Shown here one piece after another: positions 4,124 to 64,000 of a DNA stretch of 64,000 nucleotides; positions within the stretch are counted from its first letter, which is position 1; every line of letters starts with the position of its first letter. Origin of the DNA: Chitinivibrionales bacterium (GTDB taxonomy: Bacteria > Fibrobacterota > Chitinivibrionia > Chitinivibrionales > WJKA01); contig JBBRUX010000014.1 of assembly GCA_038247415.1 (NCBI GenBank), forward strand, positions 12,758 through 76,757. Reading direction: 5' to 3'. The notes below the pieces were generated by a model. It ran no database searches and was not told the DNA's origin. It saw only the letters and a program-made list of their open reading frames with translations. Made by a program: the position numbers and the translations under genes.

Positions 4124-4131
4124 AAGGGATA

Positions 4132-4854: not shown

Positions 4855-4926
4855 TGGTGTGCTGAAATTTTGCGCGGAAAGATTGGCGTGGAAGGTTTTT
4901 AAGAATTGATAAAAAGTAGTAATCGA

Positions 4927-4958
4927 ACAAAACCACCGAGGGATCTCGGTGGTTTTGT
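4927..4958. terminator. Bidirectional terminator between convergent genes
   Basis: ACAAAACCACCGAG-GGAT-CTCGGTGGTTTTGT perfect 14-bp stem. Confidence 0.85.
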
Positions 4959-4973
4959 GTTATAAGGCGGGCC

Positions 4974-5963: not shown

Positions 5964-6150
5964 ATTCACAATCCTTTCCTGCTCTAAACGTATACAAGGT
6001 GGCATTTGAATTGGGAAAATCCCGAGCAATTGCAAAATAGCCCAAAGAGGGGCTATAGAACTTAGCATAATATACGAAATTGGCATCAGTTTATTTTAAT
6101 ATGGATAGTTACACTTCTTCATCAATATTTATTGCACGCAAAGGTCGGAT

Positions 6151-6345
6151 ATGATAGCATTACTGGGTGAGCTTATAAGAATCGGTCTCTTGGTATTTTT
6201 TGTAACACTGGTATGGCGGATGCTCTTTGGTGCCTCAAAAAAACAGGGCGCTCAAAAAGCTGCAGCCAAGAATACTACGGCTCGTCGCTTTGATGCGGCT
6301 GGTAAAAATATTAAAGACGCCGATTTTAAGGATGTCTCAAAGTAA
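6151..6345 (+). CDS. Small membrane protein
   Basis: One hydrophobic helix, basic linker, IKDADFKDV C-terminus. Confidence 0.6.
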   Translation: MIALLGELIRIGLLVFFVTLVWRMLFGASKKQGAQKAAAKNTTARRFDAAGKNIKDADFKDVSK

Positions 6346-6383
6346 CTATCAAGTAGCAATGGAAATTGTACAAGGAGTTTCGT

Positions 6384-6740
6384 ATGGAACTATCTGTCAC
6401 GGATGTCGGAAAATTCAAGATCATCAAAGCCGCAGGACGGGTAGACTGGGAAAATGCTCGTTTGCTTGACAAAGAAATACATCAAGTGATTGATGGCGGA
6501 TCTTGTCACATTGTCTTTAATCTCGACGAAGTGACGTTTATATGCAGCGGCGGGATTGGAGCTCTGGTATATAATCTCAATAAAGTAAAAAAAATGGGCG
6601 GTGCCATTTATATCATTTCATCTAATCAGTATGTGAATTATATTTTCGAGACACTCAAATTCGACATTGTTTTTGATGGGTACCTTTTTAGTTCCATCGA
6701 AATGTTTTCTGAACAAGTACTGGACAGACAGGACACCTAA
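6384..6740 (+). CDS. STAS-domain protein (anti-sigma factor antagonist)
   Basis: AAGGAG RBS; GRVD, VFNLDEVTFICSGGIGALV phosphoacceptor-loop motif. Confidence 0.9.
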   Translation: MELSVTDVGKFKIIKAAGRVDWENARLLDKEIHQVIDGGSCHIVFNLDEVTFICSGGIGALVYNLNKVKKMGGAIYIISSNQYVNYIFETLKFDIVFDGYLFSSIEMFSEQVLDRQDT

Positions 6741-43997: not shown

Positions 43998-44017
43998 TGT
44001 TGACTGGCCAGTCAACA
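43998..44017. promoter_or_regulatory. Perfect 20-bp palindrome, candidate operator
   Basis: TGTTGACTGGCCAGTCAACA centred 62.5 bp before ATG 44070; TATATT at 44058-44063. Confidence 0.65.
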
Positions 44018-44069: not shown

Positions 44070-44930
44070 ATGGCTATCACAGACCCTACACTTTTTGATT
44101 ATTTGGATTACCGAGAATTCCTTCGGGATTTCTTTAAGGAGCAGAAACGTCGGCACTTCTACTACTCTTTTCGCTATATTGCACAAAAGACTGGTATAGA
44201 CCCGGCACATCTTGCGCGGGTTTTTCAGAGCAAGCGCCATTTATCGCAGAAGAGTCTGGATTCGATTGTTTCCTTGTTGAAACTCACCGATGACGAGCAA
44301 GTTTTTTTCACGCGGCTTTTTGCCTTTAACACAGCCCGAACCGAACGCGAGGCTAAGCGGGCATTTGAGGAGATCCTCGCTTTCGGAGGCGTCAAATCCA
44401 AAACGCTGCACGCCGGGCAATTTCGTTTCTATACAAAATGGTACTATACGGCAGTACGCGCCCTTATTGCCATGCGATTATTTACCGAGCGAGACTACGC
44501 TGCCATCGCGCGAAGTCTGAGTCCGTCAATTTCACTGTCTGAGGCTAAGGATGCTGTCCGTTTGCTCCTGGAACTCGGTCTTGTTGAAACAGGTTCTGAT
44601 GGAATTTTGAGAGTGCTCGATACGCACATCAGTACCGGCCCTAAGTGGCGCTCGATCGCTGTTAAAGCATTTCATTCGGAGACTATAAAGCTTGCGGGTG
44701 AATCTATTGAGCGGCATCCGCGCGAAGTTAGGGACATATCAACAGTTACCGTAGGGATCAAACGCAGCCGAATGGATGAAATTCGTCAGCGGATTGTTGA
44801 ATTTCGTTCGTCAATTATGCATCTTGCAGAAGAAGACACCGATCCCGATGAAGTTTACCAATTGAATATTCAACTCTTTCCCTTGACTGATACCTCAAGC
44901 AAAAAGGGGCATGGCGATGAAGTGTTGTAA
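44070..44930 (+). CDS. TIGR02147/DUF4423-family HTH protein
   Basis: LFDYLDYREFLRDFF, SFRYIAQKTG HTH, KWYYTAVRAL, RDISTVTVGI, VYQLNIQLFPL. Confidence 0.88.
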   Translation: MAITDPTLFDYLDYREFLRDFFKEQKRRHFYYSFRYIAQKTGIDPAHLARVFQSKRHLSQKSLDSIVSLLKLTDDEQVFFTRLFAFNTARTEREAKRAFEEILAFGGVKSKTLHAGQFRFYTKWYYTAVRALIAMRLFTERDYAAIARSLSPSISLSEAKDAVRLLLELGLVETGSDGILRVLDTHISTGPKWRSIAVKAFHSETIKLAGESIERHPREVRDISTVTVGIKRSRMDEIRQRIVEFRSSIMHLAEEDTDPDEVYQLNIQLFPLTDTSSKKGHGDEVL

Positions 44931-46449
44931 GCCCGTCGGCTTCCTGATTGCCATTGCAGCAGTAACGCTTGTTCGCTGCTCCAATACTACAAATGTTGCG
45001 GGGAATAGCAGCTCCGAAACAACCAATGGCGTTACCGCCGCAATTGTCTATTCCAACGGAACCCCTGCAGCTCATGCTGTCGTGCGAGTACGAGCGAGCG
45101 ACTACCTTGCCGATACAACTGTAGCTCTTGCTAAAAGCCTTACAATGAGCGATGATATTCTCACTGATGATTTTGGTCGCTTTAAGATCGATTCTCTTGA
45201 CACCGGTAAATATCTGATCGAGGCGGTTGATGCATATGGTAATGCCGTTGCGATTCCATTCACAGTTATCAAAGATTCTTTGGTCAACCTCGGTAATCGG
45301 ACCCTTTCGCCGATGGGGACGATTGCAGGATCGGCGGGTGGGCCTTTTGTGAAAGCAGTAGTGCGCGTACGTGGACTCGAACGCGGTGTGCGGCTTGATC
45401 GGGATGGACGATTTGCAGTTACGGTTCCTTCGGGTCAATCATACATCGTCAACTTTTCCACACAAGATTCATCAGCCGACCTGACCCCTACGCAGCCCAT
45501 TGCGTCATCGCAATCGGTGGTTGTCAACGCAGACTTCGGCCATTACCGGACCGATTCGCTGGCAGTGCGGGCGTTTCTTGATAGTTCGGGATTACAAGCG
45601 GTGAGGGTCGATTCGGTAACGGTTGTGAGTTCACCGGTACGCCGGATCACTGCACTGCACCTGACGGATCGGAATCTGTACGTTCTCCATCAGTCCATTG
45701 GGTCGCTCGTATTCCTTAATGAGCTAAGGCTCAGCGGCAATAAGCTCACCGATCTTCCCGCAACGCTTGCGCGCCTCTCTCATCTGTATCATTTGTATAT
45801 CGATAGTTTACCGATGACACGGCTGCCGGATTGCGTGGCGCAGATTCGTTCGCTTACGCTTCTTGACATTAATAATACGCAGATTACTACGCTGCCAACC
45901 TCTCTGAGTGCGTGCACGTCGCTCAACGTCATCTCGATGCGCGGTACCGGGGCCACGGAGTTTCCGATGGTCGTCGTGTCGATGTCGTGGATGTCCACGC
46001 TTAATATCAGTGAGAATCCAATAAGCACGATACCCTCTGGAATCGGCGCATGCACCTCTTTGCAGCATATAGAGTTTCACGATACCCAGATCGACTCTCT
46101 GCCTGCATCTATCGGGACGCTTCGAAATCTGCGTAGCATATTTGCTTATCGAAGCCGCCTAACCACTCTCCCTGCATCAATCGGTATGCTGAGTGCCCTG
46201 GAAATAGTGGGAGTTGGTAGCTGCGTTCTAAACTCGCTTCCACCCGAACTTGGGGACTGCGCGGCACTCAAGATATTGAATTTGGATAACAATGCGCTGG
46301 ATTCGCTTCCGGCCAAGATCACCAATCTTACAGCTCTTACGAGCTTGACAATCGCCGGAAACCATCTCTGCACGCTTCCGACGGCCATCGCTGCCTGGGC
46401 CGATACGTATGCAGAACCATCGTGGCGAACAAATCAAACATGCCCCTAG
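44917..46449 (+). CDS. Lipoprotein with carboxypeptidase-regulatory-like domains and leucine-rich repeats
   Basis: Lipobox LVRC; AGNSSSETTNG; TDDFGRFKI..GKYLIE; about ten LxxLxLxxNxLxxLP repeats; alternative start 44911. Confidence 0.85.
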   Translation: MKCCKPVGFLIAIAAVTLVRCSNTTNVAGNSSSETTNGVTAAIVYSNGTPAAHAVVRVRASDYLADTTVALAKSLTMSDDILTDDFGRFKIDSLDTGKYLIEAVDAYGNAVAIPFTVIKDSLVNLGNRTLSPMGTIAGSAGGPFVKAVVRVRGLERGVRLDRDGRFAVTVPSGQSYIVNFSTQDSSADLTPTQPIASSQSVVVNADFGHYRTDSLAVRAFLDSSGLQAVRVDSVTVVSSPVRRITALHLTDRNLYVLHQSIGSLVFLNELRLSGNKLTDLPATLARLSHLYHLYIDSLPMTRLPDCVAQIRSLTLLDINNTQITTLPTSLSACTSLNVISMRGTGATEFPMVVVSMSWMSTLNISENPISTIPSGIGACTSLQHIEFHDTQIDSLPASIGTLRNLRSIFAYRSRLTTLPASIGMLSALEIVGVGSCVLNSLPPELGDCAALKILNLDNNALDSLPAKITNLTALTSLTIAGNHLCTLPTAIAAWADTYAEPSWRTNQTCP

Positions 46450-46590
46450 AAGGAGAGTATCTCGTATGATTTCATTGCATTGCGGTTCTGCGCCTTAGCG
46501 CCAGCAAAAAAAAACAAATTCCTAAAACTATTCGTTTCAACATGCGCAAAAAAGCGCCCTTAATATCATTTTGTCCAAAGGAGAAGCAGT

Positions 46591-48402
46591 ATGAAAAACG
46601 TTCCTCAACTAACGACACTATTGACGCGAAGGATTTCGCTGACAATCATGGCGCTAAGTTTTGTTCTGGTTGGCGCTTGGACATCAGTTGGCGCGGCACG
46701 CTTCGGAATCAACCTCGGTGGACTGTCGCCCTACGCAACCGAATTCGTCTATAAAGATCTTGTCAAGACGATGGGAGCGCAGCGAAAGGGCACGGGATTT
46801 ACAGAAGAACAGTTTGATACCAATGGGTATCCGAAATTCCTGAATGCTGGTCAATCAATCGAACTTTACTTTGGAGATGGAACGGGGCAGATATGGCCCG
46901 TTGGCGATTATCACGTTTTTTATGATGGTGAAGGGACCGTATCAGAAAAAACCGGTTCTGCAATACTTAAACAAACGGTAAGTCCAGGTCATCAGATCTG
47001 GACGGTTATTCATGGGTCAGCCGATGGATTGAAATTTTCTATCGATGCAACCACCTCTTCAAACTACCTCAAAAATTTGAGGATCATACTTCCAGGCTTC
47101 GAGAACAATTATCAGGCTGATCCAATCCATCCAAGCTTCAAACAGCTATGGTCGGGTGTCTCAGCCTTCAGATTCATGGACTGGATGGGGACAAATGGCT
47201 CCACCGCCACTCGTTGGAATCAGATCCCCTCGGCGGGCTATCTTGCGCTTGGCTATAACGGCATGTGGGGAGGTCAAACTTTTTCCTCGGATCGATACAA
47301 CGGCTCACCTGAGCTGGCTGTTCAAGTGTGTAACGCTATGAACGCCGATATGTGGATCTGCATGCCGGCACATGCTTCGGACGATTGCATCCAGCATCTG
47401 GCGCAACTCGTCAAAAATAACCTGAACGGGAATCTCAAGGTCTACATCGAGTATTCGAATGAATGCTGGAACTGGATTTTTGAGCAGACTGGCTATTGCC
47501 GCGACCAGGGGGTTGAGTTGGGGTTGACCACAGGTGGAGCGCTTGAATACTACGTCTACCGTAGCGGACAGATGTTCAAGATCTGGGAAGACGTCTGGGG
47601 AACTTCCAAGTCTCGCGTAGTTAATGTTTTCGCTTGGCAGACTACAACCTCCAATCCCGAAACATGGATCAATACGGCAATCAACACCTGGTACAAGAAC
47701 AATCCCAAATACAATCCAGCCGGCGCTTTACCGGAGTTCTATGCAAATGCTCCCTACATTTGGGACAAAGATCAAACGGCTTCGAGCGTCGATCAACTTT
47801 TCGCGGGAATCAACGATGACATGAGTGTCGATTTCAACATCATGAGCTCCCAGAAAAGCTTCGCGGATGACAACGGGCTTGAGTATGGATGCTACGAGGC
47901 AGGGCAGCATTATAGTTCGTACGGCCAGAATGAGGCTCTTGACAATAGCGTATTCATTCCCGCCAACCGTGACATGCGGATGAAAACGGCGTATGAGGCC
48001 TATCTGGGCTATTGGAAGAACACCATCGGCGCGGGGTTGATGATGCTTTACTCTTCTTGTGGCACCTACAGCAAATACGGTTCGTGGGGCATTCTTGAGA
48101 GATACAACCAGGACATCACCACTTCGCCAAAGTATATGGCTGTCAAAGGCATTATGAACCTTGGCCAATCCACCACAGTTCGACCAGTCCTTCCCAACAA
48201 CTCTAAATCCGCCGGCTTTGGCAAGCCATCCAACCTACAAGCAAGCGCACGTGCGGGGATAATGGTTGACATACAAGGTCGATCTGTCAGTTTTGCACAA
48301 GGAAGCCAAAGCTCTGGACCCGGCGTGATTATCACTAAATTGACAGGAAATAACAATTCGACAAAATGCATTCTGGTTTCAAAAAAGAACTTTTCACGTT
48401 AA
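46591..48402 (+). CDS. Secreted putative clan GH-A-like glycoside hydrolase with T9SS-like tail
   Basis: Signal peptide; FRFMDWMGTN, YIEYSNECWN, YEAGQH; VDIQGR tail. Confidence 0.65.
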   Translation: MKNVPQLTTLLTRRISLTIMALSFVLVGAWTSVGAARFGINLGGLSPYATEFVYKDLVKTMGAQRKGTGFTEEQFDTNGYPKFLNAGQSIELYFGDGTGQIWPVGDYHVFYDGEGTVSEKTGSAILKQTVSPGHQIWTVIHGSADGLKFSIDATTSSNYLKNLRIILPGFENNYQADPIHPSFKQLWSGVSAFRFMDWMGTNGSTATRWNQIPSAGYLALGYNGMWGGQTFSSDRYNGSPELAVQVCNAMNADMWICMPAHASDDCIQHLAQLVKNNLNGNLKVYIEYSNECWNWIFEQTGYCRDQGVELGLTTGGALEYYVYRSGQMFKIWEDVWGTSKSRVVNVFAWQTTTSNPETWINTAINTWYKNNPKYNPAGALPEFYANAPYIWDKDQTASSVDQLFAGINDDMSVDFNIMSSQKSFADDNGLEYGCYEAGQHYSSYGQNEALDNSVFIPANRDMRMKTAYEAYLGYWKNTIGAGLMMLYSSCGTYSKYGSWGILERYNQDITTSPKYMAVKGIMNLGQSTTVRPVLPNNSKSAGFGKPSNLQASARAGIMVDIQGRSVSFAQGSQSSGPGVIITKLTGNNNSTKCILVSKKNFSR

Positions 48403-48427
48403 AACAAGTATTCAATGGGAGGTATCC

Positions 48428-50806
48428 ATGAAAGACACATGCAAATATATGTCAATACATCTATCCGGTCGGAAGTGGGAATTTCCCTCTTTTGCAGTGT
48501 TCCTGCTTATTACGCTGTGTGCTCTGCCAAGCAACGTCCATGGGCAAATGAATGTCGGCTTTAACTTCTGGAGTCTTGACTGGGGATCATCTTCGGCAGG
48601 TGATCCGAAGTATAACTACTTTGCTCACAATGTCAATTGGACAACCACGACCAATCCCTGGAACCCTACCTTCATCGCCGAAATCCAACAAGCCCAGGCC
48701 AAATGCCTTCGATTCATGGACTGGGGGGTGACCAACAGCAGCACCGTCGCTTCATGGAGCCAGCGAATCGCCAAAACGGCCAATCATTACACCGGCGCAA
48801 CGCTGCCCCAGACTGGCGGTGGCCAATCGGGCGTCGCCTACGAATGGATGATTGACCTGTGCAATCGTGTGAATGCGGATCTGTGGGTTTGTGTTCCCCA
48901 TATGACAGATGCAAATTATTCCAACCAACTCGCCACCTTGATCAAGAATAACCTCAACGCTAACCTGAAGGTGTATGTTGAGTACTCAAATGAATGCTGG
49001 AATGATGGTTTCAATCAAACGGGCTGGCTGGATGCCCAGAGAAATATCAATGGGCTCGCCAATCCGCTCAAATGGAATGGCAAAAATATTTATGGTTTTG
49101 GTAACGGTGGAGATTGCCGATGGTCGGAATATGTGTACTTTGCTTGCAAAACGATGAATGAGTTCAATAAGGTCTTTGGTGATAATAGCTCGCGAGTTGT
49201 TAAGGTGTTATCTGGGCAGGCCGGATGGGGCGGCGGCGGCAGCACCAATGACATGTGCGAATACCACATGGCTTGCTCTCAAAGTCCGATATGCAATCCG
49301 TGGGGAGTCAAGATAGATGCGTATGCAATAGCGCCTTATTGGAACGCAAGCGAGCATACGCCCCTGGGCACCGAAGCATCGATGCGGGCAAGTCTTGCTG
49401 ATTGCGTTCATTTCCTGGACAACACGCAAACTGCGTTGACAGGTTCGGGTATTCCCCTTATTTGCTATGAAGGGGGACCGGATAATTTCAGTATTGAAAG
49501 TATCTCCAACAGCCCTTTTCAGGAACAGCTCACCCTCGATGCGCTGAATGCATTTCAGGCGAAAGTCCAGGGCATATTTATCTGGTACACTCTTATCGGG
49601 CAAGTGTGGGGGCTTAAGGTGCAAGTCGGTGATGATCCTTCGGTATCGCCAAAGTGGCGCGGGTACATGACTTGGTTGAATACGTCAAGTACGTCACCTG
49701 CGTCAATTACAGTTGAGCCATCCAACGATTCAATTTTCCCCGGCTCAACTGCCTCCTTCTCGGTCTCTGCTATCGGGACAACGCCCGTTTCGTATCAATG
49801 GAGAAAAAATGGTGTGGTCATCGCCGGTGATACAGCGTCAACACTCACTTTGTTTAATGTGCAAGCAATAGACAACAATGCGAAGTATAGCGTTATTGTC
49901 AAGAATGCATTTGGAGCGGATACGAGTAGGGACGCAATTCTTATTGTCAAAGCCTTTGATGGGTTGCAGATCCAAAAGACCTCGGGTGCGCCAGTTATGG
50001 ACGGAAGCGAGAGTGCACAGTGGCAAGGCGTTGCACCACAGTCTGTTGCACACGCATTGGCAGGCGCTCCTAGCAGCGCTGCGGACTTTTCGGTTCAGTT
50101 CAAGGCACTGTGGGATGCATCCAATCTCTATGTCTTTGTCAAGATTTCCGATGGCATCGCCTATAATTCGGCAACGGTGGCATATCAAAATGATGGCATG
50201 GAAATTTATGTTGATGGCGATAACAGTAAGGGATCATCCTATGACGCCAACGATATTCAGTATCGCATCGTACGTGGCAAGGTCGCGCTTGAGGCATCGG
50301 ATCCCAGCAAGACCACGGGTGTTGTGGTGGTTCAGAAAGAAATTGCTGGAGGGTATAGCGCAGCCTTCACCATTCCCTGGACAACGATCGGGACCACCGC
50401 TGTTGCATCAAAGCTGATGGGTCTTGAAGTTCACGCTTTTGACAATGACGGCACGCCTGAGCGCAAAACGGTTCTTGCATGGGCAGGAACAACCGACAAC
50501 GCGTGGAATACGCCTTCTGCATTCGGCACGGCAAAGCTCTCCGATGCTACTACCCGGGTGATGCATTCAAATATATCCTCGGTGAGTACCTTGACGCAAT
50601 CGTATCTTCTCGCGTCACTGAGAAATGGAGTTGTCAGAGACGACAGAATTCGGTCGATGGCTCTGTATGATATGAGTGGACGTTTGATGTGGCAAAGTTC
50701 ACAAACCCACACGAGTTCTATGCCATATCTGAATAAAGGCATTTTTCTTTGCAGGGTAATCCAATCTAATGGTGTTTCAAATGCTTTTAACTTTGTCAAT
50801 AAATGA
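48428..50806 (+). CDS. Secreted GH-A-like hydrolase + Ig-like + CBM9-like domain + T9SS-like tail
   Basis: LRFMDWGVTN, YVEYSNECWN, YEGG; SYQWRKNG Ig motif; LWDASNLYV..DGMEIYVDGDN; YDMSGR. Confidence 0.7.
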   Translation: MKDTCKYMSIHLSGRKWEFPSFAVFLLITLCALPSNVHGQMNVGFNFWSLDWGSSSAGDPKYNYFAHNVNWTTTTNPWNPTFIAEIQQAQAKCLRFMDWGVTNSSTVASWSQRIAKTANHYTGATLPQTGGGQSGVAYEWMIDLCNRVNADLWVCVPHMTDANYSNQLATLIKNNLNANLKVYVEYSNECWNDGFNQTGWLDAQRNINGLANPLKWNGKNIYGFGNGGDCRWSEYVYFACKTMNEFNKVFGDNSSRVVKVLSGQAGWGGGGSTNDMCEYHMACSQSPICNPWGVKIDAYAIAPYWNASEHTPLGTEASMRASLADCVHFLDNTQTALTGSGIPLICYEGGPDNFSIESISNSPFQEQLTLDALNAFQAKVQGIFIWYTLIGQVWGLKVQVGDDPSVSPKWRGYMTWLNTSSTSPASITVEPSNDSIFPGSTASFSVSAIGTTPVSYQWRKNGVVIAGDTASTLTLFNVQAIDNNAKYSVIVKNAFGADTSRDAILIVKAFDGLQIQKTSGAPVMDGSESAQWQGVAPQSVAHALAGAPSSAADFSVQFKALWDASNLYVFVKISDGIAYNSATVAYQNDGMEIYVDGDNSKGSSYDANDIQYRIVRGKVALEASDPSKTTGVVVVQKEIAGGYSAAFTIPWTTIGTTAVASKLMGLEVHAFDNDGTPERKTVLAWAGTTDNAWNTPSAFGTAKLSDATTRVMHSNISSVSTLTQSYLLASLRNGVVRDDRIRSMALYDMSGRLMWQSSQTHTSSMPYLNKGIFLCRVIQSNGVSNAFNFVNK

Positions 50807-52505
50807 TGAGTTTACAGACTCACTTTTAATGGGAAAACAAATGCGCATATGTCTTATGGTTCTTATGACCGTAGTATCCCTTTCGTATTCTGCAACCATC
50901 ACTTCCTACGGCCTGGGCAATAGCCTCATGGACGAATTCGATGGTATTCCAACCCTTGCTGCGAGCAAAGGAGACGTGTGCAATCATGGCCGGTACACCA
51001 TCCCCGGGTGCGGCATGAAGTGCCTCTGGGATTTGATTCCTGGTTTACCTCCCGGATTCTCGTCAAAGCGTCTCGATTGCGTGCTTACCGAGGCATTTTG
51101 CAATGGCGACGAGCTCAATATCGACGGTGACTCGAAGTACATGGGCTATTACTACGATGCATCCTTGGCCGTCAATCCCAATTGTCGCCTTCTTGTATTC
51201 ACGCAATGGATGTCAAAGGATTGGGGTTCCTGGAGTGTTTGGGAAACCCTGTGGCATAGCACAACACAGGACCTCTGTCCCAAATATGGCACGGCTGCCT
51301 ATCACGAGGGCCTGGTGCTTAAACTGAGAGCCATGTACCCGAGTAAGGAAGTTTCCCTGCTGCCCATCGGACACGTCATGGACCTTTTTGAGCACGAGGC
51401 AGCAGCGGGCAGAATACCTGGATACAGTGGCGCCTTTGGTCTCTTTGCCGACGGCATTCACCTCAACACCGACGGCAAGTATCTGCAGAACTTAACAGCC
51501 TACGCAGTGATGTTCAAGAAAGATCCCCACGGCGCAGGCTTGTCGTTTGCGCAATGGTCCGGGACAGAAACGGTGACGCAGGCCTTCGCCAACATCGCAG
51601 CCGATCTCGTGTGGAAGACCGTCACCGACCTGAGCACTCTCACCAATGTTGGATCCTCGACTCCCGGCAAGACTATCATCGCACGCATCGTAGCCGACAA
51701 GGCATCGGGAGCTGCGCCATTGACCGTCGCGTTTGACGGATCGGGATCTACAGGAACAAATCTTTCCTACGCATGGAAGTTCGGTGATGGACAAACAGGG
51801 ATCGGATCAAAAGTCAACCACATGTATCAGACAGCGGGTTCGTACAAGGCTGTTCTCACAGCAACCGGCGGAGCGGAGAAGGACTCGGCGCAGACCACGA
51901 TCACTGTCTCAATACCGGTGGAAGCCTACAAGATCAGCAAAACATCAAATATGCCTCTCATGGACGGAAGCGAGAGTACGCAGTGGCAGACTGCACCTGC
52001 GCAACCCCTTACCCACGCTCTCACGGGTGCACCCACGAACGCCGCGGATTTGTCCGTGCAATTCAGGACGATGTGGGACGCAACCAACCTCTATGTGTTA
52101 GTCAAAGTGACGGATGATATCGCCTCCAACAGCGCGTCAATGACCTATCAGAACGACGGCATCGAAGTCTATGTGGATGGCGATAACAGTAAGGGATCAT
52201 CCTATGACGCCAACGATATTCAGTATCGCATCGTTCGAGGAAAAACCAGTCTCGAGACATCGGGCACGGACAAGGCAACGGGAGTTGTGGTGACTCAGAA
52301 AGAGATTGCAGGGGGCTATACAGCAGCCTTCACCATTCCTTGGACAACTATCGGAACCACTGCCTCGGTCTCAAAAATGATCGGAATGGAAGTTCACGCC
52401 TTCGATAACGACGGCACAGCTTCGCGAAAGACGGTTTTGTCGTGGGCTGGCACAACCGACGATGCCTGGGCCACACCATCGGTTTTTGGGACAGCGCAGC
52501 TTGTC
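49970..52505 (+). repeat. Duplicated CBM9-like domain DNA (about 49970-50545 and 51930-52505)
   Basis: 59-bp exact match at 50213-50271 and 52176-52234 within a longer collinear similarity. Confidence 0.9.
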
Positions 52506-52721
52506 GAAACAGGAGCAACGACGATTCGCAATGCACACACGAGAAGCTCGGGCATTATAAACACTGTCCAGGGAGAGATGGTGAAGATGGTTGACATCCG
52601 TGGGCGGAGTATCAGACAGAATGATAATTCATCAAGTGTCATTGTCATTCAACTGACAAGCAAAAATAAGGCTGCGATTCCGCGAGTCGTTGTTTCTAAA
52701 AACAGCCGGAGGGTCTGGTGA
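50841..52721 (+). CDS. Secreted SGNH-like hydrolase + PKD + CBM9-like domain + T9SS-like tail
   Basis: LGNSL and DGIH motifs; GAAPLTVAFDGS..WKFGDG PKD motif; MWDATNLYV; VDIRGR. Confidence 0.7.
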   Translation: MRICLMVLMTVVSLSYSATITSYGLGNSLMDEFDGIPTLAASKGDVCNHGRYTIPGCGMKCLWDLIPGLPPGFSSKRLDCVLTEAFCNGDELNIDGDSKYMGYYYDASLAVNPNCRLLVFTQWMSKDWGSWSVWETLWHSTTQDLCPKYGTAAYHEGLVLKLRAMYPSKEVSLLPIGHVMDLFEHEAAAGRIPGYSGAFGLFADGIHLNTDGKYLQNLTAYAVMFKKDPHGAGLSFAQWSGTETVTQAFANIAADLVWKTVTDLSTLTNVGSSTPGKTIIARIVADKASGAAPLTVAFDGSGSTGTNLSYAWKFGDGQTGIGSKVNHMYQTAGSYKAVLTATGGAEKDSAQTTITVSIPVEAYKISKTSNMPLMDGSESTQWQTAPAQPLTHALTGAPTNAADLSVQFRTMWDATNLYVLVKVTDDIASNSASMTYQNDGIEVYVDGDNSKGSSYDANDIQYRIVRGKTSLETSGTDKATGVVVTQKEIAGGYTAAFTIPWTTIGTTASVSKMIGMEVHAFDNDGTASRKTVLSWAGTTDDAWATPSVFGTAQLVETGATTIRNAHTRSSGIINTVQGEMVKMVDIRGRSIRQNDNSSSVIVIQLTSKNKAAIPRVVVSKNSRRVW

Positions 52722-53752
52722 TAAAGAGCATTGTCAATCGGCACAACCTGATCGCCGCATCAGTGATGGTGGTTGCGCTGGGAGCCGCAGGATCGGCAGC
52801 AACCACCACGCACAAAGGGGGAATGGTCCTGATCCCGGCACAAGGGAAATCCTTTCTGATGGGACAGGCGGGCATTGCCGATACCGAGCATACGGTGTCA
52901 TTCACCTACAACTACTGGATGGACACTACCGAGGTAACTCAGGCCGACTTCGGGTCGCTGATGAACTTCAACCCATCCTACTATCCCAATGAGTTTGCGC
53001 CGGTGGAGATGGTGACCTGGTATGATGCGGCGCTGTACTGCAACAAGCGGAGCAAACGCGATCACCTTGACACATTCTATGTTTACACAGGCAAGAATGT
53101 CAACACAAACGGCAACGGCAACACCATCACCGGTCTTGTGAACCTAACCTACAGGCCGGATGGGCGTGGGTATCGTTTGCCAACCGAGGCCGAATGGGAA
53201 TTCGCGGCACGGACAGGGAGTGCAACGACTTACGATTGGGGAGACACGGTCAATGGCGACTATTGCTGGTATCAGGTGAACAGCAATCAAACGACCCATC
53301 TTGTTGCTCAAAAAAAGCCTAATTCATTCGGGCTTTACGACATGATCGGTAATGTGCTGGAGTGGACAATGAACGTGACGGCGCAGAGCAACTACGCTGC
53401 TTTGGCAGTTGCCGACCCGCAGCCAATCGTGAGTGGACTGGCCAGCGCTCGTGGGGGGAAATTCAGTTCCATGCCGAGCGAAATGCCGCCCGCTCTTCGG
53501 TACCGGTCTTTAGCTTCTTATGTGTCGTCGGGGACGTATGGGTTTCGGGTAGTGCAATCAGTTGATCTGGTTTCGATTGGAAACAGTCGACACAGTCAAT
53601 CGCCAGGATCGCATTCTTCAATAAAAAATTCATTTGGAATACGAGGGCGTTGTGGACTGTCGATTGCACACGGGAAAGGCAGATACGATTTACATGGCAG
53701 ACTGATTTCTGGCAAGGTCGCTGAAATGAAGATGAGTATGAGCCGGTTCTGA
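52718..53752 (+). CDS. Secreted FGE-sulfatase/SUMF1-fold protein with T9SS-like tail
   Basis: MDTTEVTQ, PVEMVTWYDA, YRLPTEAEWEFAAR, PNSFGLYDMIGNVLEW, YGFRVV. Confidence 0.88.
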   Translation: MIKSIVNRHNLIAASVMVVALGAAGSAATTTHKGGMVLIPAQGKSFLMGQAGIADTEHTVSFTYNYWMDTTEVTQADFGSLMNFNPSYYPNEFAPVEMVTWYDAALYCNKRSKRDHLDTFYVYTGKNVNTNGNGNTITGLVNLTYRPDGRGYRLPTEAEWEFAARTGSATTYDWGDTVNGDYCWYQVNSNQTTHLVAQKKPNSFGLYDMIGNVLEWTMNVTAQSNYAALAVADPQPIVSGLASARGGKFSSMPSEMPPALRYRSLASYVSSGTYGFRVVQSVDLVSIGNSRHSQSPGSHSSIKNSFGIRGRCGLSIAHGKGRYDLHGRLISGKVAEMKMSMSRF

Positions 53753-57091: not shown

Positions 57092-57334
57092 ATGGTTCGC
57101 ACCCAGATTTACCTGACCGAAGATGAAAAAAACGGCCTCGAATCGGTAGCCTTGGCAAAAGGCCTAAGCCAGAGCGAATTGATCAGGCATGCGATCGACG
57201 ACCTACTCAGCAAAAGTGGTACGCCAGATAAGTCAGCGATCCTTGATGAAATTGCAGGAATTTGGTCCAACAGGAAAGATCTTCCCGATGTCCGTGACCT
57301 GCGTGCCGGATGGCGTCGGAGGCCTTCACGATGA
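57092..57334 (+). CDS. vapB: Ribbon-helix-helix (CopG) antitoxin
   Basis: MVRTQIYLTE..SQSELIRHAID; AGIWSNRKDL. Confidence 0.85.
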   Translation: MVRTQIYLTEDEKNGLESVALAKGLSQSELIRHAIDDLLSKSGTPDKSAILDEIAGIWSNRKDLPDVRDLRAGWRRRPSR

Positions 57335-57720
57335 GTAAATCCGTTATTGTCGATACCGACATCCTGATAGATTTCCTGCGCGGTGGTAAACAGGCCATCT
57401 CTTTATTCAAGGATGAATCAGAACCCATCTGTTTTTCCGCAATTACAGTGGCCGAGATTTACGCAGGAATCCGGGATCGCAAAGAGGAAGAAGATGTCAA
57501 GCGACTTTTTTCCCTGTATACGGTAGTTTCGGCGACGCATGAAATCGCTTTGGAAGCGGGGAAACTTGTGAAGAAGTACCGGTCGTCGCATTCGGTAGAA
57601 ATCCCAGATGCGATAATTGCCGCAACATGTCTTGTTTCTGATATGGAGTTGCTGACGCTTAATATCAAGCATTATCCGATGCTCAAGGGTTTAAAGCCGC
57701 CCTATCGAAAATCCAATTAA
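57331..57720 (+). CDS. vapC: PIN-domain toxin
   Basis: VDTDILIDFLRG, SAITVAEIYAG, DAIIAAT, LTLNIKHYP; ATGA overlap with the antitoxin. Confidence 0.92.
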   Translation: MSKSVIVDTDILIDFLRGGKQAISLFKDESEPICFSAITVAEIYAGIRDRKEEEDVKRLFSLYTVVSATHEIALEAGKLVKKYRSSHSVEIPDAIIAATCLVSDMELLTLNIKHYPMLKGLKPPYRKSN

Positions 57721-58027: not shown

Positions 58028-59291
58028 ATGAAGCGCGATATCAATCAAAAACTCATTGCATGGAAAATATCTCCTCGTCGAAAACCCTCTCTATTTAAAC
58101 TTTGAAGAGCTACCGGAACTTGGGGATCTTTTTAAAAGGAGCCTTGAACCAGAACGAATTTTAGGAATGCTTTCGATATATGCCCAGCGATCGATTGATA
58201 CCAAAAACGAACTGCTGATTTTTGATGAGATCCAATCGTGCAACGCAGCCTTAGCATCCCTTAAATATTTTCAGGAAAAACGTCCTGACGTACATATTGC
58301 AGTGGCAGGTTCACTTTTGGGATTAAAAATGTCTACACCGGGTACATTTCCCGTTGGGAAAGTCAATCTTTTACAACTTCACCCCATGACATTTCCGGAA
58401 TTTCTAGATGCCATTGGCCAGTCACGCTATCGGAATCTGATTGAAACTAGTGAACTGATCGAACCATTTGCTGAACCGTTTCATAACGATCTTATTGACT
58501 TATTGCGTATCTATTACTTTGTGGGTGGCATGCCAGAGGCAGTGCAGATCTATATTTCAACAAGCGATACAAACCAGGTGCGAGAAGTTCATAAAGAAAT
58601 TCTTGACACCTACGAACTCGATTTCGCAAAACATGCTCAAGCAACCGATATTCCTAAACCATCCGCTGTCTGGCACTCGATTCCAAATCATCTCGCCCGC
58701 GAAAATAAAAGGTTCGTTTTTTCATCTTTACGGCAAAGTGCCCGAGGACGCGACTATGCCGATGCCTTGCAGTGGCTTACCGATGCAGGGCTCATTTATA
58801 AAACCAAGGCCATTTCTCATGTAGAACTACCGCTTGCCGGGATGGCACATGAAGAAATATTTAAAGTATATGCTCTTGACATTGGACTTTTATCCGCTTT
58901 GGCAAACATTTCTCCAGCAATTTTAACGCATGGGTCAGAGTTCTTTCAGACATTCCATGGTGCATTCGTGGAAAATTATTGCGCGCAGCAATTGATTGCA
59001 TCCCAAGAATCGCAACTGTATTATTGGAAAAGTGAAGGAAAAAAAGCCGAAATCGACTTTATTTGTGAATTTGATGGAGCCATTTTTCCATTCGAAGTCA
59101 AGGCAGGAATAAATACCAAAAGCAAAAGTCTGCAATCGTATGATCAGTACTATAACCCAAAATTGCTTATTCGCAGCAGTTTACTGAATCTTAAGCATAA
59201 CGGAAAAATTCTCAACATTCCACTTTATGTAGCTGGATCGATACAGCGTTTTGTAAGTATGGCATTGATACAACCACACATTTTAAAATGA
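58028..59291 (+). pseudogene. AAA_14/DUF4143 ATPase-nuclease with Walker A deleted and frameshifted
   Basis: MKRDINQKLIAWKISPRRKP, then another frame LYLNFEE..IFDEIQ..AGSLLG..GGMPEAV..EIDF..PFEVKAG..IPLY; no GxRQVGKT. Confidence 0.88.
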
Positions 59292-59538: not shown

Positions 59539-60048
59539 ATGATCAATATAAACAACTATGAAGTGTGGTTTGTTACCGGAAGTCAACACCTCTATGGAGA
59601 GAAAACGCTCGCCCAGGTTGCAGAGAATTCTAAGACCATCGCCGATGCAATGGGTTTGGCACTGCCGATAAAGGTTATTTACAAACCGGTTCTCACGGGC
59701 CCCGATGCCATTGCAACGCTTTGTCGGGAGGCGAACAACTCACCGTCTTGCATCGGACTTATCTGCTGGATGCATACATTCTCTCCGGCTAAGATGTGGA
59801 TTGGTGGGTTCTGGCAGGATGCCGATGTGCAGAACGAACTCTCGGTATGGACACGGGTTGCAGCAGGATGGATCTTTGCAGGCGGAGCTCATCATACCTG
59901 CTTTACGCAGGAGATTACCCAGCAGTATCTTGAAATCTTCGCCGAAATGGCAGGAATGGAGTGCGTGGTTATTGGCAAAGATTCGATGGTCGACCAAATT
60001 CGCAAGGAGCTTCGGTGGAACGAGGCATATTATGACAGGGGTAGGTAG
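59539..60048 (+). pseudogene. araA: L-arabinose isomerase reduced to 169 aa by two in-frame deletions
   Basis: [27 protein letters not shown] / [12 protein letters not shown] / [17 protein letters not shown]; intact AraA is about 500 aa. Confidence 0.9.
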
Positions 60049-60162: not shown

Positions 60163-60485
60163 ATACACACCCTAGGCTCAGTGTCTGGTAGAGCATGGCA
60201 GGGGCGAGGCATAATTGACATTTGCGGCAGATAAGACTGGAAGGTGACGCTCAGATTGAGAATGTGTGAATACTAGTAGCTGGGCTCCCACGGGTGTTGG
60301 TTTTCGTTGACTAGTGACCGTACGTCCATCCCCGCTTCGACAGGCACTCACTGCAAAACTTGAGCAGACTCAATAGATTACGCATCAACAAAACTCGTAA
60401 TAGAGGTGAACGTTCTCAGGAATAATAGTGTCATTACTTTAACATAATAAATGCTTTATGATGTCTAATTAAGTGACCTTATCAA

Positions 60486-60513
60486 AAATCGTTCACCAAA
60501 AGGTGAACGATTT
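60486..60513. promoter_or_regulatory. 12-bp inverted repeat, candidate operator
   Basis: AAATCGTTCACC-AAAA-GGTGAACGATTT centred 63.5 bp before ATG 60563; TATATT at 60551-60556. Confidence 0.65.
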
Positions 60514-60562
60514 CTTCTCACCCTACGTTCTACTCCGGCTCTGTTTCTACTATATTATCACC

Positions 60563-61429
60563 ATGACACCCAACAAGCCTATTGTTCCCAGCCCGATCTG
60601 CCTATTCGACTACACCGACTATCGCCGGTTCCTCGAAGACTACATCCAGGAAAAGAAGACCGAAAATTCCCACTTTTCCTTTCGCTACATTGCCGATCGA
60701 CTTGACTTGCGATCGAGCGGCTTTATTCTCTATGTCATTCAGGGAAAGCGGCGGCTTTCCGAGGAGCTCACGTTCAAGATTTGCCAGTTCTTTAAGTTTA
60801 CCAAAAAGGAGACGGAGTATTTCCTCCTTCTTGTTAAATATGCTCACACAAAGAGCTTTGTTGAAAAACAGTTCTACTTCGATCGGCTTGCAGCGATGCG
60901 AAGGGTGACGGTGAGGTGCATCGAACCGCAAAAATACCGCTACTATGAAAAGTGGTACTATCTTGCTATACGCGAATACGTGGCTATTCATCGATTTGTG
61001 GATCAGTACGAAAAGCTTGCCCGCGATCTCACGCCGTCAATTACCCCTGCCCAGGCTGCAGAGGCCATTCATACTCTTGAGGAGCTCGGTCTGATAAGAA
61101 AAAACGAGCAGGATTTTTACGAGCGCGTTGAAGCCGTCACCAGCACCGGTGATGCATGGCAATCGGCCACGGTTCACAACTTGCAACAGCAGCTTTTGGA
61201 TATCAGTAAAGATGCCCTAGCGCGATTGCCAAAAAAGAAGAGAGACTTTTCAAATCTCACACTCAGCATGTCACGACGCACGTTCGACGAAGCCCGCATA
61301 CGTATCGAACAATTGCGCGCTGAACTTTTGGAATTAGCTCGGCGTGATGAAAATCCCGATGGAATTTATCAAATAAGCATCCAAGCCTTCCCTTTGCACG
61401 ATGACTTTTCGAAGGGTGGTAACATATGA
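60563..61429 (+). CDS. TIGR02147/DUF4423-family HTH protein
   Basis: LFDYTDYRRFLEDY, FSFRYIADRL, KWYYLAIRE, RDFSNLTLSM, IYQISIQAFPL; paralog of 44070-44930. Confidence 0.88.
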   Translation: MTPNKPIVPSPICLFDYTDYRRFLEDYIQEKKTENSHFSFRYIADRLDLRSSGFILYVIQGKRRLSEELTFKICQFFKFTKKETEYFLLLVKYAHTKSFVEKQFYFDRLAAMRRVTVRCIEPQKYRYYEKWYYLAIREYVAIHRFVDQYEKLARDLTPSITPAQAAEAIHTLEELGLIRKNEQDFYERVEAVTSTGDAWQSATVHNLQQQLLDISKDALARLPKKKRDFSNLTLSMSRRTFDEARIRIEQLRAELLELARRDENPDGIYQISIQAFPLHDDFSKGGNI

Positions 61430-62541
61430 GGTCGTTATTCTGGACATTCATCATTCTCGCTTCATGTATACTCATGTGCTCTGAATCGTCAACCACTGTT
61501 GCTGCAGGCGGTGGCGGTTCGGAAGTCACCAATGGCATTATCGCCCGAATCATCAGAAGCGATGGACATCCCGCTGTGGGCGCTTGTGTCAGGCTGCGAA
61601 GCGAATATTTTCTGGCGCAGTCAACCGGACTCGGCAAATCCGCCACCTACGAAAATGCCGTTACCGACACAAATGGGGAGTTCGAAATCCGGGGAATTGG
61701 CCTGGGAGCACATCGAATCGAGATTAACGATAATGTCTCTGGCGCTGTTCTTCTCTCATGCTCAATCTCCGCATCGACCCACCTGCTCGATCTCGGGGTT
61801 GATACGCTGCGACCCTTTGCCGCCATCACAGGGACACTGCAGGGGGCAGCCGCAGGGCACTCGCTACAGATTTACGGGATGGAAAGAAGTGCGCAGGTGG
61901 ATTCCACCGGATCATTCGCTTTTAGCAAACTACCCGGAGGGATCTATCGGTTGGTCGTAACGTCAAATAACAACTCTGCGTCTCCTGTCTTGTTGGATTT
62001 GGTTACTGTGGCTCCTGGAGGGATTAAAAATATTTCTGCCACAATTGCAGCACTTAACCCTTTGGCCGATGCGCATGTTCGCGGTGGCGGTGGCGCCGGG
62101 ATTAACTACGGCGGTGAGGTTCAGCTTACCGTCAAGGAAGCGCTGAGCACCGACCTGGACTACACCAGAAATGCTTACCTCAAGTTCGATGTGTCAGGCA
62201 TCGCAACGGCGACCAAAGCAGTACTTATAGTGTACGGCAAGAACATGGATGATAGCTTGGACGTTTCCTTGATAATTCACGGCTGCGATTCCGACATCTG
62301 GACCGAAGGAGGCATCACGTGGAACAACGCCCCTGCCAATTCGTCAACCCTCGACACCGTGATAGTCAATGGTACGGCCGCTTACCGGGAGTTGGATGTT
62401 ACACGATTTGTGCAAGCCCAGATCGCGGGGGATCATACGGTTACGCTGTGCATCACGGCCAAGGCGGAATCGAACAAGGTGGTCTTCCTCAACAGCAAAG
62501 AGAGTTCGGCGAACAGACCGCAGCTTGTCATCACTCCGTAG
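61426..62541 (+). CDS. Lipoprotein with carboxypeptidase-regulatory-like domains and DNRLRE/CBM96-like domain
   Basis: Lipobox ILMC; AGGGGSEVTNG; TDTNGEFEI; ADAHVRGG..NYG, RNAYLKFDVS, WTEGGITWNNAP, DVTRFV, SKE...RPQLVI. Confidence 0.85.
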   Translation: MRSLFWTFIILASCILMCSESSTTVAAGGGGSEVTNGIIARIIRSDGHPAVGACVRLRSEYFLAQSTGLGKSATYENAVTDTNGEFEIRGIGLGAHRIEINDNVSGAVLLSCSISASTHLLDLGVDTLRPFAAITGTLQGAAAGHSLQIYGMERSAQVDSTGSFAFSKLPGGIYRLVVTSNNNSASPVLLDLVTVAPGGIKNISATIAALNPLADAHVRGGGGAGINYGGEVQLTVKEALSTDLDYTRNAYLKFDVSGIATATKAVLIVYGKNMDDSLDVSLIIHGCDSDIWTEGGITWNNAPANSSTLDTVIVNGTAAYRELDVTRFVQAQIAGDHTVTLCITAKAESNKVVFLNSKESSANRPQLVITP

Positions 62542-62728
62542 CAGATATGCGTTTTATGGGAAAATGTTCGATTGTTTTTAGGTAAGAGCTCGGTTTAAAG
62601 TGTACAAACCTACAGACGTGTGGGGGAGTGGACGGTTGAGACGAGATTCGTGTTGAGGCAAAGGCTGGGTGCGAGTTTCTTTTCCTTGGGTAATATTTTT
62701 TTGAATCATCAAAAAGGAGTCTTTGAAT

Positions 62729-64000
62729 ATGAAACTGAGGATCAATGCATCCATAATTACGGGCATTTTGTTCTGCCTCATCGCAGCAACTTCGTCCCTC
62801 GTAGCCCAGACATTCACCCATCCGGGAGTACGGCACAGTCGCGGTGATCTGGATCTCATGAAGTCCCGTATTCTTGCAAATCAACAACCGTGGAAGGGCG
62901 CATACGACAACATGATTGCCTGGCAGGGTTACGGTGATGGAAAGCTTGGTCGCACTCCCAGCAGCCTGAATTTTGCGCCGGCGCCGCGCACCACGATCGA
63001 TGTGGGTTACTATGAAAAACCGCACATCGGATTCGACGAAGCGTTGACCGACGCTACTGCCGCTTACATCCATGCGATTCAGTGGTATATAACCGGCAAC
63101 AGCGCACATGCCGAAAAAGTCATGGCCATCTGCAAAGCATGGGGAACTTCACTCACCTCCATCAGCGGTGACAACGCTAAGCTTGCCACCGCGTGGATAA
63201 CATCAATGTTCTGCGATGCCGCCGAAATCGTTCGCACGACGTATTCCGGGCCCCAGGACTGGACAGCGTTTGACAACATGCTCCGAACCAAGTTCTACAC
63301 GACGATGTACGATTTCGCGCCAAGCGGCTTCAACGGGAACTGGGACGCCCTTATGAGCCAGGCGATGATGTCGATGGGGGTGGTGCTCAATGATCGCGCC
63401 ATCTATGATCGGGGGAAGAACTATTACCTGAGCGGAAAAGGCAATGGTTCCCTGCCCAACTACTGCTTCACCGATGGAACCACTCAGGAAACCACCCGGG
63501 ATCAGCGGCATGAACAAATGGGAGTCCTGGCGCTCGCAAACTCTGCCGAGATTGCCTGGAAGCAGGGAGAAGATCTTTACAGCGCGCTGGGCAACCGGCT
63601 TCTCATCGGCCTGGAAGGAACAGCGGGCCGGGTAGACGCTCAGAACTTCGGTGCGTACCCCGGCTGGGACATTCCCTACAATCATTACCACAATCGCAAG
63701 CACCTTGCCACGCCCACAATGGATTTATTCAAGAAGACCACCGAATGGGGCGGCGACAACTGGTCGTATAATACGGTGGGCTTTTGGACGGCCATGACCT
63801 TTCGGGATCTGGGCGATCCGAATCCCAATCCGGTTACTCCGCCGGTACCCGTTCCAACGCCAATCCCTGACACGCGTACTAACCTTGCCCTGAACAAGAC
63901 TACAACCGCTTCGTCAAGCGATACAAATATTGCGGCAAACGCGGTTGATGGCAATCTTGAAACCCGCTGGTCGGCTGATGCGTATCCCCAATGGATCCGG
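62729..64000 (+). CDS. Secreted alginate-lyase-family protein with Pro/Thr linker and F5/8 type C (CBM32-like) domain, partial
   Basis: Not in the ORF track (open to window end); AAGGAG RBS; MKLRINAS.. signal; FTHPGVRH, NGNWDA, QETTRDQRHEQMG; PVTPPVPVPTP; NLALNKTTTASS..AVDGNLETRWS. Confidence 0.85.
   Translation, partial: MKLRINASIITGILFCLIAATSSLVAQTFTHPGVRHSRGDLDLMKSRILANQQPWKGAYDNMIAWQGYGDGKLGRTPSSLNFAPAPRTTIDVGYYEKPHIGFDEALTDATAAYIHAIQWYITGNSAHAEKVMAICKAWGTSLTSISGDNAKLATAWITSMFCDAAEIVRTTYSGPQDWTAFDNMLRTKFYTTMYDFAPSGFNGNWDALMSQAMMSMGVVLNDRAIYDRGKNYYLSGKGNGSLPNYCFTDGTTQETTRDQRHEQMGVLALANSAEIAWKQGEDLYSALGNRLLIGLEGTAGRVDAQNFGAYPGWDIPYNHYHNRKHLATPTMDLFKKTTEWGGDNWSYNTVGFWTAMTFRDLGDPNPNPVTPPVPVPTPIPDTRTNLALNKTTTASSSDTNIAANAVDGNLETRWSADAYPQWIR

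Follow-up and report, generated by a model that had tools for sequence, protein, structure and literature searches.

The stretch of DNA analysed here (the window: 64,000 nucleotides, positions 12758-76757 of contig C14, JBBRUX010000014.1) belongs to the genome of an uncultured sediment bacterium of the Fibrobacterota (order Chitinivibrionales; 3.84 Mb in 99 contigs, 43.7% G+C) and ends in a three-gene accessory locus. The three co-directional genes, all with intact frames, occupy 60563-64000 and encode a TIGR02147/DUF4423 regulator, a lipoprotein whose C-terminal head is a CBM96 (DNRLRE) domain, and an enzyme of the alginate-lyase family PF05426. The reading we favour, to which we give a probability of about 0.55, is that the lipoprotein captures glycan at the cell surface with a swapped-in CBM96 head, in concert with a secreted, PL5-like uronate lyase that was gained by horizontal transfer and may act on a polymer other than alginate. 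Each part is of a kind already known, and the way they are combined is a variant not seen before.

An earlier note on this DNA had described a lipoprotein ending in a DNRLRE-type domain, followed by a gene at 62729 for an alginate-lyase-family protein with an F5/8C domain, and profile searches bear out both assignments. The lipoprotein open reading frame (ORF), 61426-62541, encodes 371 amino acids (aa), of which residues 208-370 match the CBM96 model PF24517 (E 1.6e-43, 148.9 bits against a cut-off of 26, model positions 3-163 of 164) and residues 214-370 the NCBIfam DNRLRE model NF033679 (E 1.7e-27, 96.5 bits, cut-off 34); against the PDB, the head matches 8wab (E 7.6e-11) and 7vbo (E 2e-7). 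Ahead of it lie a CarboxypepD_reg match (residues 144-200) and a hydrophobic N-terminus (Kyte-Doolittle 1.72) with a lipobox-like L-M-C at residues 16-18, read by eye in register with ten paralogues and not with a lipoprotein predictor. The founding CBM96 is TM6-N4 of the PL39 alginate lyase Dp0100 (PDB 7VBO), and the passages of PMC9971899 that deal with it confirm what the earlier note had stated, that this is an alginate-binding module; binding is attributed there to Lys10, Lys22, Lys25, Lys27, Lys31, Arg36 and Tyr159, with Lys27 and Arg36 called ‘relatively conserved’ across the family. The head resembles both TM6-N4 and 8WAB in its Pfam and NCBIfam matches across the entire domain and in keeping equivalents of Lys27 and Arg36. 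It differs from TM6-N4 in being carried by a lipoprotein without a catalytic domain instead of by an enzyme, and it is nearer to 8WAB than to the alginate binder 7VBO.

The link between head and enzyme is suggested by adjacency, by gene fusions and by shared composition. The host genome holds one CBM96 match and one PF05426 match, and they lie 187 bp apart; by our own arithmetic, two domains placed at random in 3.84 Mb would come within 1 kb of each other with a chance of about 5e-4. A search with the enzyme gave 106 homologues (E up to 1e-5), and in six of them CBM96 and the enzyme are parts of one polypeptide, in both domain orders: CBM96 is C-terminal in P0002 (65% identical, from an Opitutaceae metagenome-assembled genome, MAG) and P0003 (54%), and N-terminal in P0010, P0025, P0036 and P0037 (40-43% identical), the last three of which start with a lipoprotein signal while P0010 begins without one. 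The fusion is also present at three of the 79 genome loci that hold a relative of the enzyme, and CBM96 is fused to a second PF05426 subfamily too (P0127, 27% identity). The G+C content at third codon positions (GC3) is 0.659 in the CBM96 segment and 0.665 in the catalytic part of the lyase gene, 0.531 in the regulator gene and 0.532 in the N-terminal module of the lipoprotein, against a genome reference of 0.394 ± 0.053 (1066 long ORFs, 99th percentile 0.599); the two nearest relatives of the lyase have values of 0.69 and 0.71. Within the lipoprotein gene the GC3 step matches the domain border and is modest (z 2.4).

The nearest relatives of the lyase are found in an Opitutales MAG (70% identity), in P0002 (65%) and in a MAG labelled Saccharibacteria (63%), where the locus contains a TonB-dependent receptor, and the family occurs in 31 of 296 genomes of the phylum at no more than 45% identity (tallies over the 296 genomes take in G253, which is flagged unpublished and on which no specific claim is built). 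Because its closest relatives, taken as Verrucomicrobiota, are 63-70% identical as against at most 45% within its own phylum, and because of its GC3, the lyase appears to have been acquired by horizontal transfer. The CBM96-coding segment probably came in with the lyase, into an accessory region. A functional link between the C-terminal domain of the lipoprotein and the enzyme encoded beside it is probable. The earlier note had proposed that the lipoprotein senses the polyuronate which the adjacent enzyme degrades; the pairing of head and enzyme is supported by the fusions, the adjacency and the GC3, and the sensing part, discussed below, is unsupported.

The enzyme gene starts at ATG 62729, in agreement with the earlier note, and its full product is represented by P0001 (583 aa, beginning MKLRINAS), which is 100% identical over the part in the window. 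PF05426 (Alginate_lyase) matches residues 109-292 of the ORF read from 62723 (E 9.5e-12, 45.4 bits, cut-off 22.2), corresponding to residues 107-290 of P0001, which continues with an F5/8C domain at 392-508 (E 2.7e-21, 76.4 bits, cut-off 28.2) and a tail of about 75 residues without a Pfam match. Just the first 32 residues of the F5/8C domain lie in the window (E 0.025), the match being partial there because contig C14 ends. The best match of this domain is the CBM32 of the alginate lyase AlyQ (7d29, E 1.8e-15 over 121 residues); unlike AlyQ (7D29/7D2A/5XNR), where the partner is a PL7 domain, it is attached here to a PL5-like catalytic domain. An AlphaFold2 model built from 69 homologues has a predicted confidence (pLDDT) above 85, mostly above 90, over residues ~31-360; its F5/8C part is unreliable (pLDDT below 50) and was not used. 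The top Foldseek match is to PL5 (A1-III, E 2.2e-6; PanPL as target, TM-score 0.70), and VIA-align gives Z 27.1 for PL5 A1-III (root-mean-square deviation 2.9 Å over 301 residues), 26.7 for the PL17 N-domain, 24.6 for 3nnb, 24.1 for a chondroitinase, 23.9 for AlgL of PL5 and 23.6 for BoPL38. All 50 of the top 50 structural matches of the catalytic domain are uronate polysaccharide lyases. PL17, PL38 and glycosaminoglycan lyases all come within 4 Z units of PL5, which makes any assignment to a CAZy family provisional.

By sequence the relationship is distant. A search of the PDB with the catalytic domain alone gave no match, and a profile gave no more than weak matches to PL5 (A1-III, E 7e-4), with no BoPL38 chain at E up to 1 or 10. 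The profile alignment to 1hv6 places R257 at PL5 Arg239 and H261 at the catalytic Tyr246, and the register with G217 at Gly204 would put N204-W205 at PL5 Asn191-His192, judging by the spacing; in the 69 homologues R257 is invariant, and conservation reaches 90% or more at N204, W205 and H261. The enzyme therefore shares with the PL5 lyases (A1-III of Sphingomonas sp. A1, AlgL, Smlt1473, PanPL) the (alpha/alpha) toroid, the PF05426 match, R257/Arg239 and N204/Asn191, and differs from them in its 12-16% identity in structural alignments and in having W205 and H261. The modelled fold suggests an enzyme that is PL5-like, and we do not file it as PL5. Its subfamily, marked by the nearly invariant motifs NGNW and ExxRDxxH (P0001 residues 202-261), numbers 212 relatives in species-representative genomes, mostly Planctomycetota (Pirellulaceae) and Verrucomicrobiota, by a search alignment of 17 sequences. 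No described or solved member was found in the literature on PL5 in Planctomycetes or in the PDB, and the locus draws attention to a widespread, apparently uncharacterised PF05426 subfamily with Trp and His at PL5 catalytic positions.

What the head binds may be approached through the company that CBM96 keeps. A search with the head gave 6158 cluster representatives at E up to 0.001, and partner domains were scanned in 44 proteins, those of the top 150 with at least 40% identity to the head. Seven carry PL8, one PF05426, one PF14099, two a beta-helix and one GH26; several of the others have propeller or malectin domains, and about 22 have CBM96 or Ig-like domains only. CBM96 thus accompanies mostly, though not solely, lyases of acidic polysaccharides. 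The nearest solved relative, 8wab, is a chondroitin-sulfate-binding module of a chondroitinase, according to a figure legend in PMC12611786, and DNRLRE domains occur on haloarchaeal PL8 lyases in the portion of PMC13260240 that describes them. An acidic, uronate-containing polymer is a reasonable class of ligand for the head. Alginate itself is not established: few of the alginate-binding basic residues are kept (see below), the nearest solved relative is 8wab, and the nearest CBM96 domains are linked to PL8.

A division of labour can be proposed on this footing. The TIGR02147/DUF4423 protein, probably DNA-binding and cytoplasmic, would act on the 28-bp palindrome upstream of its gene; the lipid-anchored CBM96 head would work as a surface glycan-binding protein (SGBP) does, retaining on the outside of the cell an acidic polysaccharide that contains uronic acid; and the secreted enzyme would cut that polymer by beta-elimination. 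A glycosaminoglycan-like or glucuronan-like polymer may be as likely as alginate, and the regulator would control the operon from the cytoplasm, perhaps via an imported product and not through the lipoprotein. The polysaccharide utilisation loci of Bacteroidota encode surface glycan-binding lipoproteins, the SusE/F-type SGBPs, and the likeness lies in a lipid-anchored, non-catalytic protein that bears a carbohydrate-binding head and has a secreted glycan-cleaving enzyme encoded next to it. The Fibrobacterota locus differs from such loci in that the genes examined upstream showed no SusC/SusD pair (no search was aimed at SusC/D), in that its regulator is of the TIGR02147 type and not a hybrid two-component or an extracytoplasmic function (ECF)/anti-sigma system, and in that the scaffold of the lipoprotein belongs to a paralogous family found throughout the Fibrobacterota.

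Several results weigh against a close match between this head and this enzyme, and a good part of them concerns the head. Of the six basic alginate-binding residues that can be aligned to 7vbo (chain number = paper number + 16; Tyr159 falls outside the aligned part), two are kept, Lys27 as K237 and Arg36 as R248, and the other positions are occupied by G221, V232, T235 and T242; the head is also acidic, with an isoelectric point of 4.9. CBM96 is promiscuous, being found with GH16 (in a relative from the phylum), with GH26 and, with a neutral surface, on a polyhydroxybutyrate (PHB) depolymerase, as the relevant section of PMC12278694 has it. In a FastTree phylogeny of 151 CBM96 domains the head is sister to P0165 (support 0.84), in a ten-member clade (0.82) with three PL8-fused domains, and by tree distance from the head the nine domains fused to the subfamily of the lyase rank 106th-150th of 150, and the P0127 domain 47th; this ranking is biased against the added sequences, since the tree was made from the 140 best matches to the head, to which the six homologues and three loci with the fusion were added manually. 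The head is moreover 35% identical to the CBM96 of P0002, the lyase domain of which is 65% identical to the lyase here. On the side of the enzyme, a CBM32-type domain of its own is already present, and two of the four PL5 catalytic residues are kept (Asn191 and Arg239), with W205 and H261 replacing His192 and Tyr246, both of which have catalytic roles in PL5 according to the part of PMC11890756 concerned with mechanism; lyase activity is for this reason not assured. The GC3 of the regulator gene is raised as well (0.53), so that the step at the domain border is only suggestive. Across loci, CBM96 was found in none of the genes neighbouring the lyase at the 79 loci mentioned above, and at one of 51 further lyase-family loci in the phylum, 5.7 kb from the lyase; no full-length match to the lipoprotein and no CBM96 head on its scaffold was found in the other genomes of the 296, so that nothing is replicated across genomes. 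No RNA run containing the stretch is listed, and co-transcription of the locus is a prediction.

The identities of 35% and 65%, together with the CBM96 tree, rule out the recent split of a lyase-CBM96 fusion as the origin of the two genes.

Several of the same facts can be put together differently: horizontal transfer may have placed the CBM96 segment and the lyase side by side in a region prone to rearrangement, with the lipoprotein gene capturing CBM96 and its product binding a ligand other than the substrate of the lyase. The surroundings suit such an account, with a toxin-antitoxin pair, a truncated ATPase gene and a deleted araA remnant upstream, a position at a contig end and a GC3 that is atypical across the entire locus, and so do the phylogenetic distance of the head from the CBM96 domains fused to the lyase family, the CBM32 that the enzyme already has, and the many enzyme classes that carry CBM96. 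We nevertheless consider adjacency without cooperation unlikely, as an in-frame exchange of heads that left a 371-aa frame intact, beside the one enzyme family of the genome that is fused to CBM96 elsewhere, would hardly be expected without selection, and all three reading frames are intact. Cooperation between capture lipoprotein and lyase remains the reading we prefer.

The regulator bears on whether the lipoprotein senses anything. Its ORF (60473-61429) matches TIGR02147 with 249.3 bits (cut-off 50) and Pfam DUF4423 with E 1.7e-32, and because the TIGR02147 model begins at residue 44 of this ORF, ATG 60563 is the likely start. The protein has no transmembrane-like segment and no signal peptide (best 19-residue Kyte-Doolittle mean 0.61), and DUF4423 is its sole match in the Pfam scan; for a relative at locus L071 the scan gave HTH_3 weakly, with an E of 9.7e-5 that falls short of the cut-off. 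About 50 bp 5′ of the regulator start sits an inverted repeat of 12+12 nucleotides (60486..60513), a pattern with one match in the window against 0.01 expected. Perfect palindromes with arms of at least 7 bp upstream of the other 12 TIGR02147 paralogues of the genome are irregular, being present in seven of the 12, three of them with arms of at least 9 bp. No inverted repeat precedes the lyase gene in 62500-62760, and a scan of the + strand found no terminator-like site in the 187-bp gap 62542..62728. This would suit a regulator that acts on the promoter of the cassette, transcription possibly running on into the lyase gene. An operator common to the cassette and the lyase gene was considered and was not found.

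It would be attractive to see in these parts a sensor, in which the CBM96 lipoprotein detects extracellular polyuronate and signals to the TIGR02147 regulator, which then turns on the lyase. The palindrome upstream and the gap without a terminator-like site are compatible with this, as are the translational coupling of regulator and lipoprotein genes in 12 of the 13 cassettes of the genome and the variety of the lipoprotein heads, those identified being binding-type beta-sandwich or leucine-rich repeat (LRR) domains. Against it, a soluble regulator and an exported lipoprotein cannot touch, and no transducer gene lies within the locus; as the regulator lacks a membrane segment and the lipoprotein is exported, there is no visible route for a signal between them, and sensing by the lipoprotein is unsupported. 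Neither the regulator nor the palindrome data lend support to the lipoprotein as a receiver of signals, and the lyase gene has no palindrome ahead of it. Comparison across loci, for which 650 kb around the 51 other lyase-family loci in 30 phylum genomes was scanned with our own profile HMMs, also speaks against it: a TIGR02147 gene was found near the lyase at eight of them against 4.2 expected, an enrichment that is not significant (Poisson P 0.064), nor does it favour cooperation between head and enzyme. The expectation derives from 317 copies in 48.7 Mb of ten genomes, and the loci are not independent (L159 and L160, for example, are orthologous). The correlation of sensor head with enzyme class that the earlier note had suggested looking for was tested and not seen, there being no second CBM96 head among the 296 genomes and a P of 0.064 at the 51 loci; with a head that is unique, such a correlation may still exist. 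Taken with the heads found beside lyases elsewhere, which are of the default kind (DUF2341+LamG, as in 15 of the 18 nearest relatives of the scaffold), these results make the sensor decidedly improbable in our estimation.

The cases that make up this comparison deserve a few words. The order regulator, lipoprotein, PF05426 gene is repeated only at L196 (contig C44 of G017, a genome of the same order as the host), where the head is DUF2341+LamG. This contig reads, from 159 to 6641, a CBM6 protein, a PL14-type lyase, a TIGR02147 regulator, a DUF2341+LamG lipoprotein and a PF05426 enzyme cut by the contig end. In G017 the cassette is present on two of five short lyase contigs (expected 0.085, P 0.003), a genome picked post hoc. 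Heads could be identified at three lyase loci, L116 (G250/G296), L196 (G017) and L170 (G249), all DUF2341+LamG, and at a fourth only the scaffold domain was matched. Of the 106 homologues of the lyase, 11 carry a fused Laminin_G_3 domain, and LamG was considered as a second match of head to enzyme; it is uninformative, because 15 of the 18 nearest scaffold relatives carry a LamG head wherever they are located. At L071 (G250/G296, contig C16, ~48.9-56.7 kb) a set comprising a PF14099 lyase, a PF05426 enzyme and a beta-helix protein (rhamnogalacturonase A/epimerase Pfam family) is present as a tandem duplicate. In this Fibrobacteria MAG (L071/L116) the duplicated set is divergent from a TIGR02147 cassette with a DUF2341+LamG lipoprotein head.

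The same beta-helix family enters into another possible reading, in which lipoprotein and enzyme would act on the acidic exopolysaccharide of the cell itself, as AlgL does in alginate producers. The structural matches of the catalytic domain include AlgL, a PL5 enzyme, and the enzyme family is fused to the beta-helix in eight of 106 homologues, besides being adjacent to it at L071. We think remodelling of the cell's own polymer very unlikely, given that no polysaccharide synthesis genes lie beside the locus within the window (on its upstream side; the contig ends downstream) and that the enzyme looks like a recent foreign acquisition.

The cassette formed by regulator and lipoprotein is a common feature of these organisms. 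The host genome has 13 full TIGR02147 genes, and a gene of the lipoprotein family follows 12 of them directly, in most cases overlapping by 4 bp; 11 of these 12 lipoproteins have a readable lipobox, the start of the copy on C58 being not settled. Four of the 12 have LRR heads, one has CBM96, one DUF2341+Laminin_G_3, and six show no Pfam match beyond the scaffold. In ten Fibrobacterota genomes the number of cassettes ranges from 11 to 82 per genome. The scaffold itself (residues ~4-205) is matched in 245 of the 296 genomes at 30-45% identity, with hundreds of paralogues, and its 18 nearest relatives carry 15 DUF2341+Laminin_G_3, two GH12-like and one DUF1349 head. The GH12-like heads (PF01670, E ~1e-17) are on the cassette lipoproteins L014:282-1565 and L018:784-2049, and the DUF1349 head is on L017. 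The scaffold is common to the phylum and its usual head is DUF2341+LamG, which is replaced here by CBM96. The locus resembles the typical TIGR02147/DUF4423 cassette in the strength of the regulator match (249 bits), in the 4-bp overlap and in the palindrome upstream, and is unlike it in being the only copy found with a CBM96 head and in being followed at once by a gene whose enzyme family has CBM96 fusions elsewhere.

A wider proposal may be drawn from this, namely that TIGR02147-lipoprotein cassettes are modular glycan-handling units, the heads of which are recombined to match newly acquired enzymes, a foreign CBM96 and lyase segment having here been grafted on in place of the DUF2341+LamG head. 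We put it forward tentatively and consider it rather unlikely in this general form; if true, this would be the first locus where a neighbour reveals the ligand class of a cassette. In the literature searched no mention of TIGR02147 was found, and DUF4423 was found mentioned once. The locus offers an experimental handle on this large, uncharacterised TIGR02147/DUF4423-lipoprotein system of the Fibrobacterota: it is the sole case found where a recognised carbohydrate-binding module forms the variable head and the gene behind it belongs to an enzyme family with known CBM96 fusions.

A second cassette of this kind lies in the window at 44070-53752. Its regulator (44070-44930) is followed by a lipoprotein with an LRR head (44911-46449), and then by a 603-aa protein without a Pfam match, two CBM9 proteins (48428-50806 and 50769-52721) and an FGE-sulfatase-like protein (52718-53752). 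Upstream of this regulator, at 43998-44017, there is a perfect palindrome of 20 bp, TGTTGACTGGCCAGTCAACA.

The features of the main locus are collected in Table 1.

Table 1. Features of the three-gene locus at the end of the window (positions are those of the window).
Feature	Position	Strand	Description
Inverted repeat AAATCGTTCACC-N4-GGTGAACGATTT	60486..60513	.	Perfect, 12+12; candidate operator (putative function)
TIGR02147/DUF4423 regulator gene	60563..61429	+	288 aa from ATG 60563; soluble, presumably cytoplasmic, DNA-binding
Lipoprotein, N-terminal module	61426..62040	+	Signal peptide with lipobox, Gly/Thr-rich motif GGGGSEVTNG, carboxypeptidase-regulatory-like beta-sandwich region
Lipoprotein, CBM96/DNRLRE head (residues 206-371)	62041..62541	+	Pfam, NCBIfam and PDB matches
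Intergenic gap, 187 bp	62542..62728	+	Ribosome-binding site AAAGGAG precedes ATG 62729
Lyase, signal peptide and (alpha/alpha) toroid catalytic domain	62729..63820	+	PF05426, PL5-like fold
Lyase, Pro-rich linker and start of CBM32-type F5/8C domain	63821..64000	+	Rest cut by contig end

Contig C14 stops where the window ends, and the junctions within the locus were compared with contigs of other assemblies. The stop of the regulator gene and the start of the lipoprotein gene overlap by 4 bp, and the junction between lipoprotein and lyase is spanned by a 6401-base Logan contig of run X2 (60400-62821), so that it is not an artefact of this assembly alone; X2 is possibly the source sample, which makes this support not fully independent. 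No Logan contig covers the full 3.6 kb, and the X2 contig is the only one to bridge the junction. A 2194-base contig of run X3 reaches about 400 bases past the stop codon of the lyase gene. Inside the lyase gene, position 62875 of the window is T>C in contigs of runs X1 and X3, and each of the three runs has contig breaks near 62625-62880, a sign that the sediment samples may contain strain variants.

Upstream of the locus, overlapping genes for a ribbon-helix-helix (CopG-type) antitoxin and a PIN toxin form a vapBC-like pair at 57092-57720, followed at 58056-59291 by an AAA_14/DUF4143 ATPase gene that is truncated, without the first ~30 model positions. Between this gene and the regulator lies a 169-aa remnant of L-arabinose isomerase (araA, 59539-60048), in which AraA_N 1-86 is joined straight to Arabinose_Iso_C 109-144, so that the gene is internally deleted.

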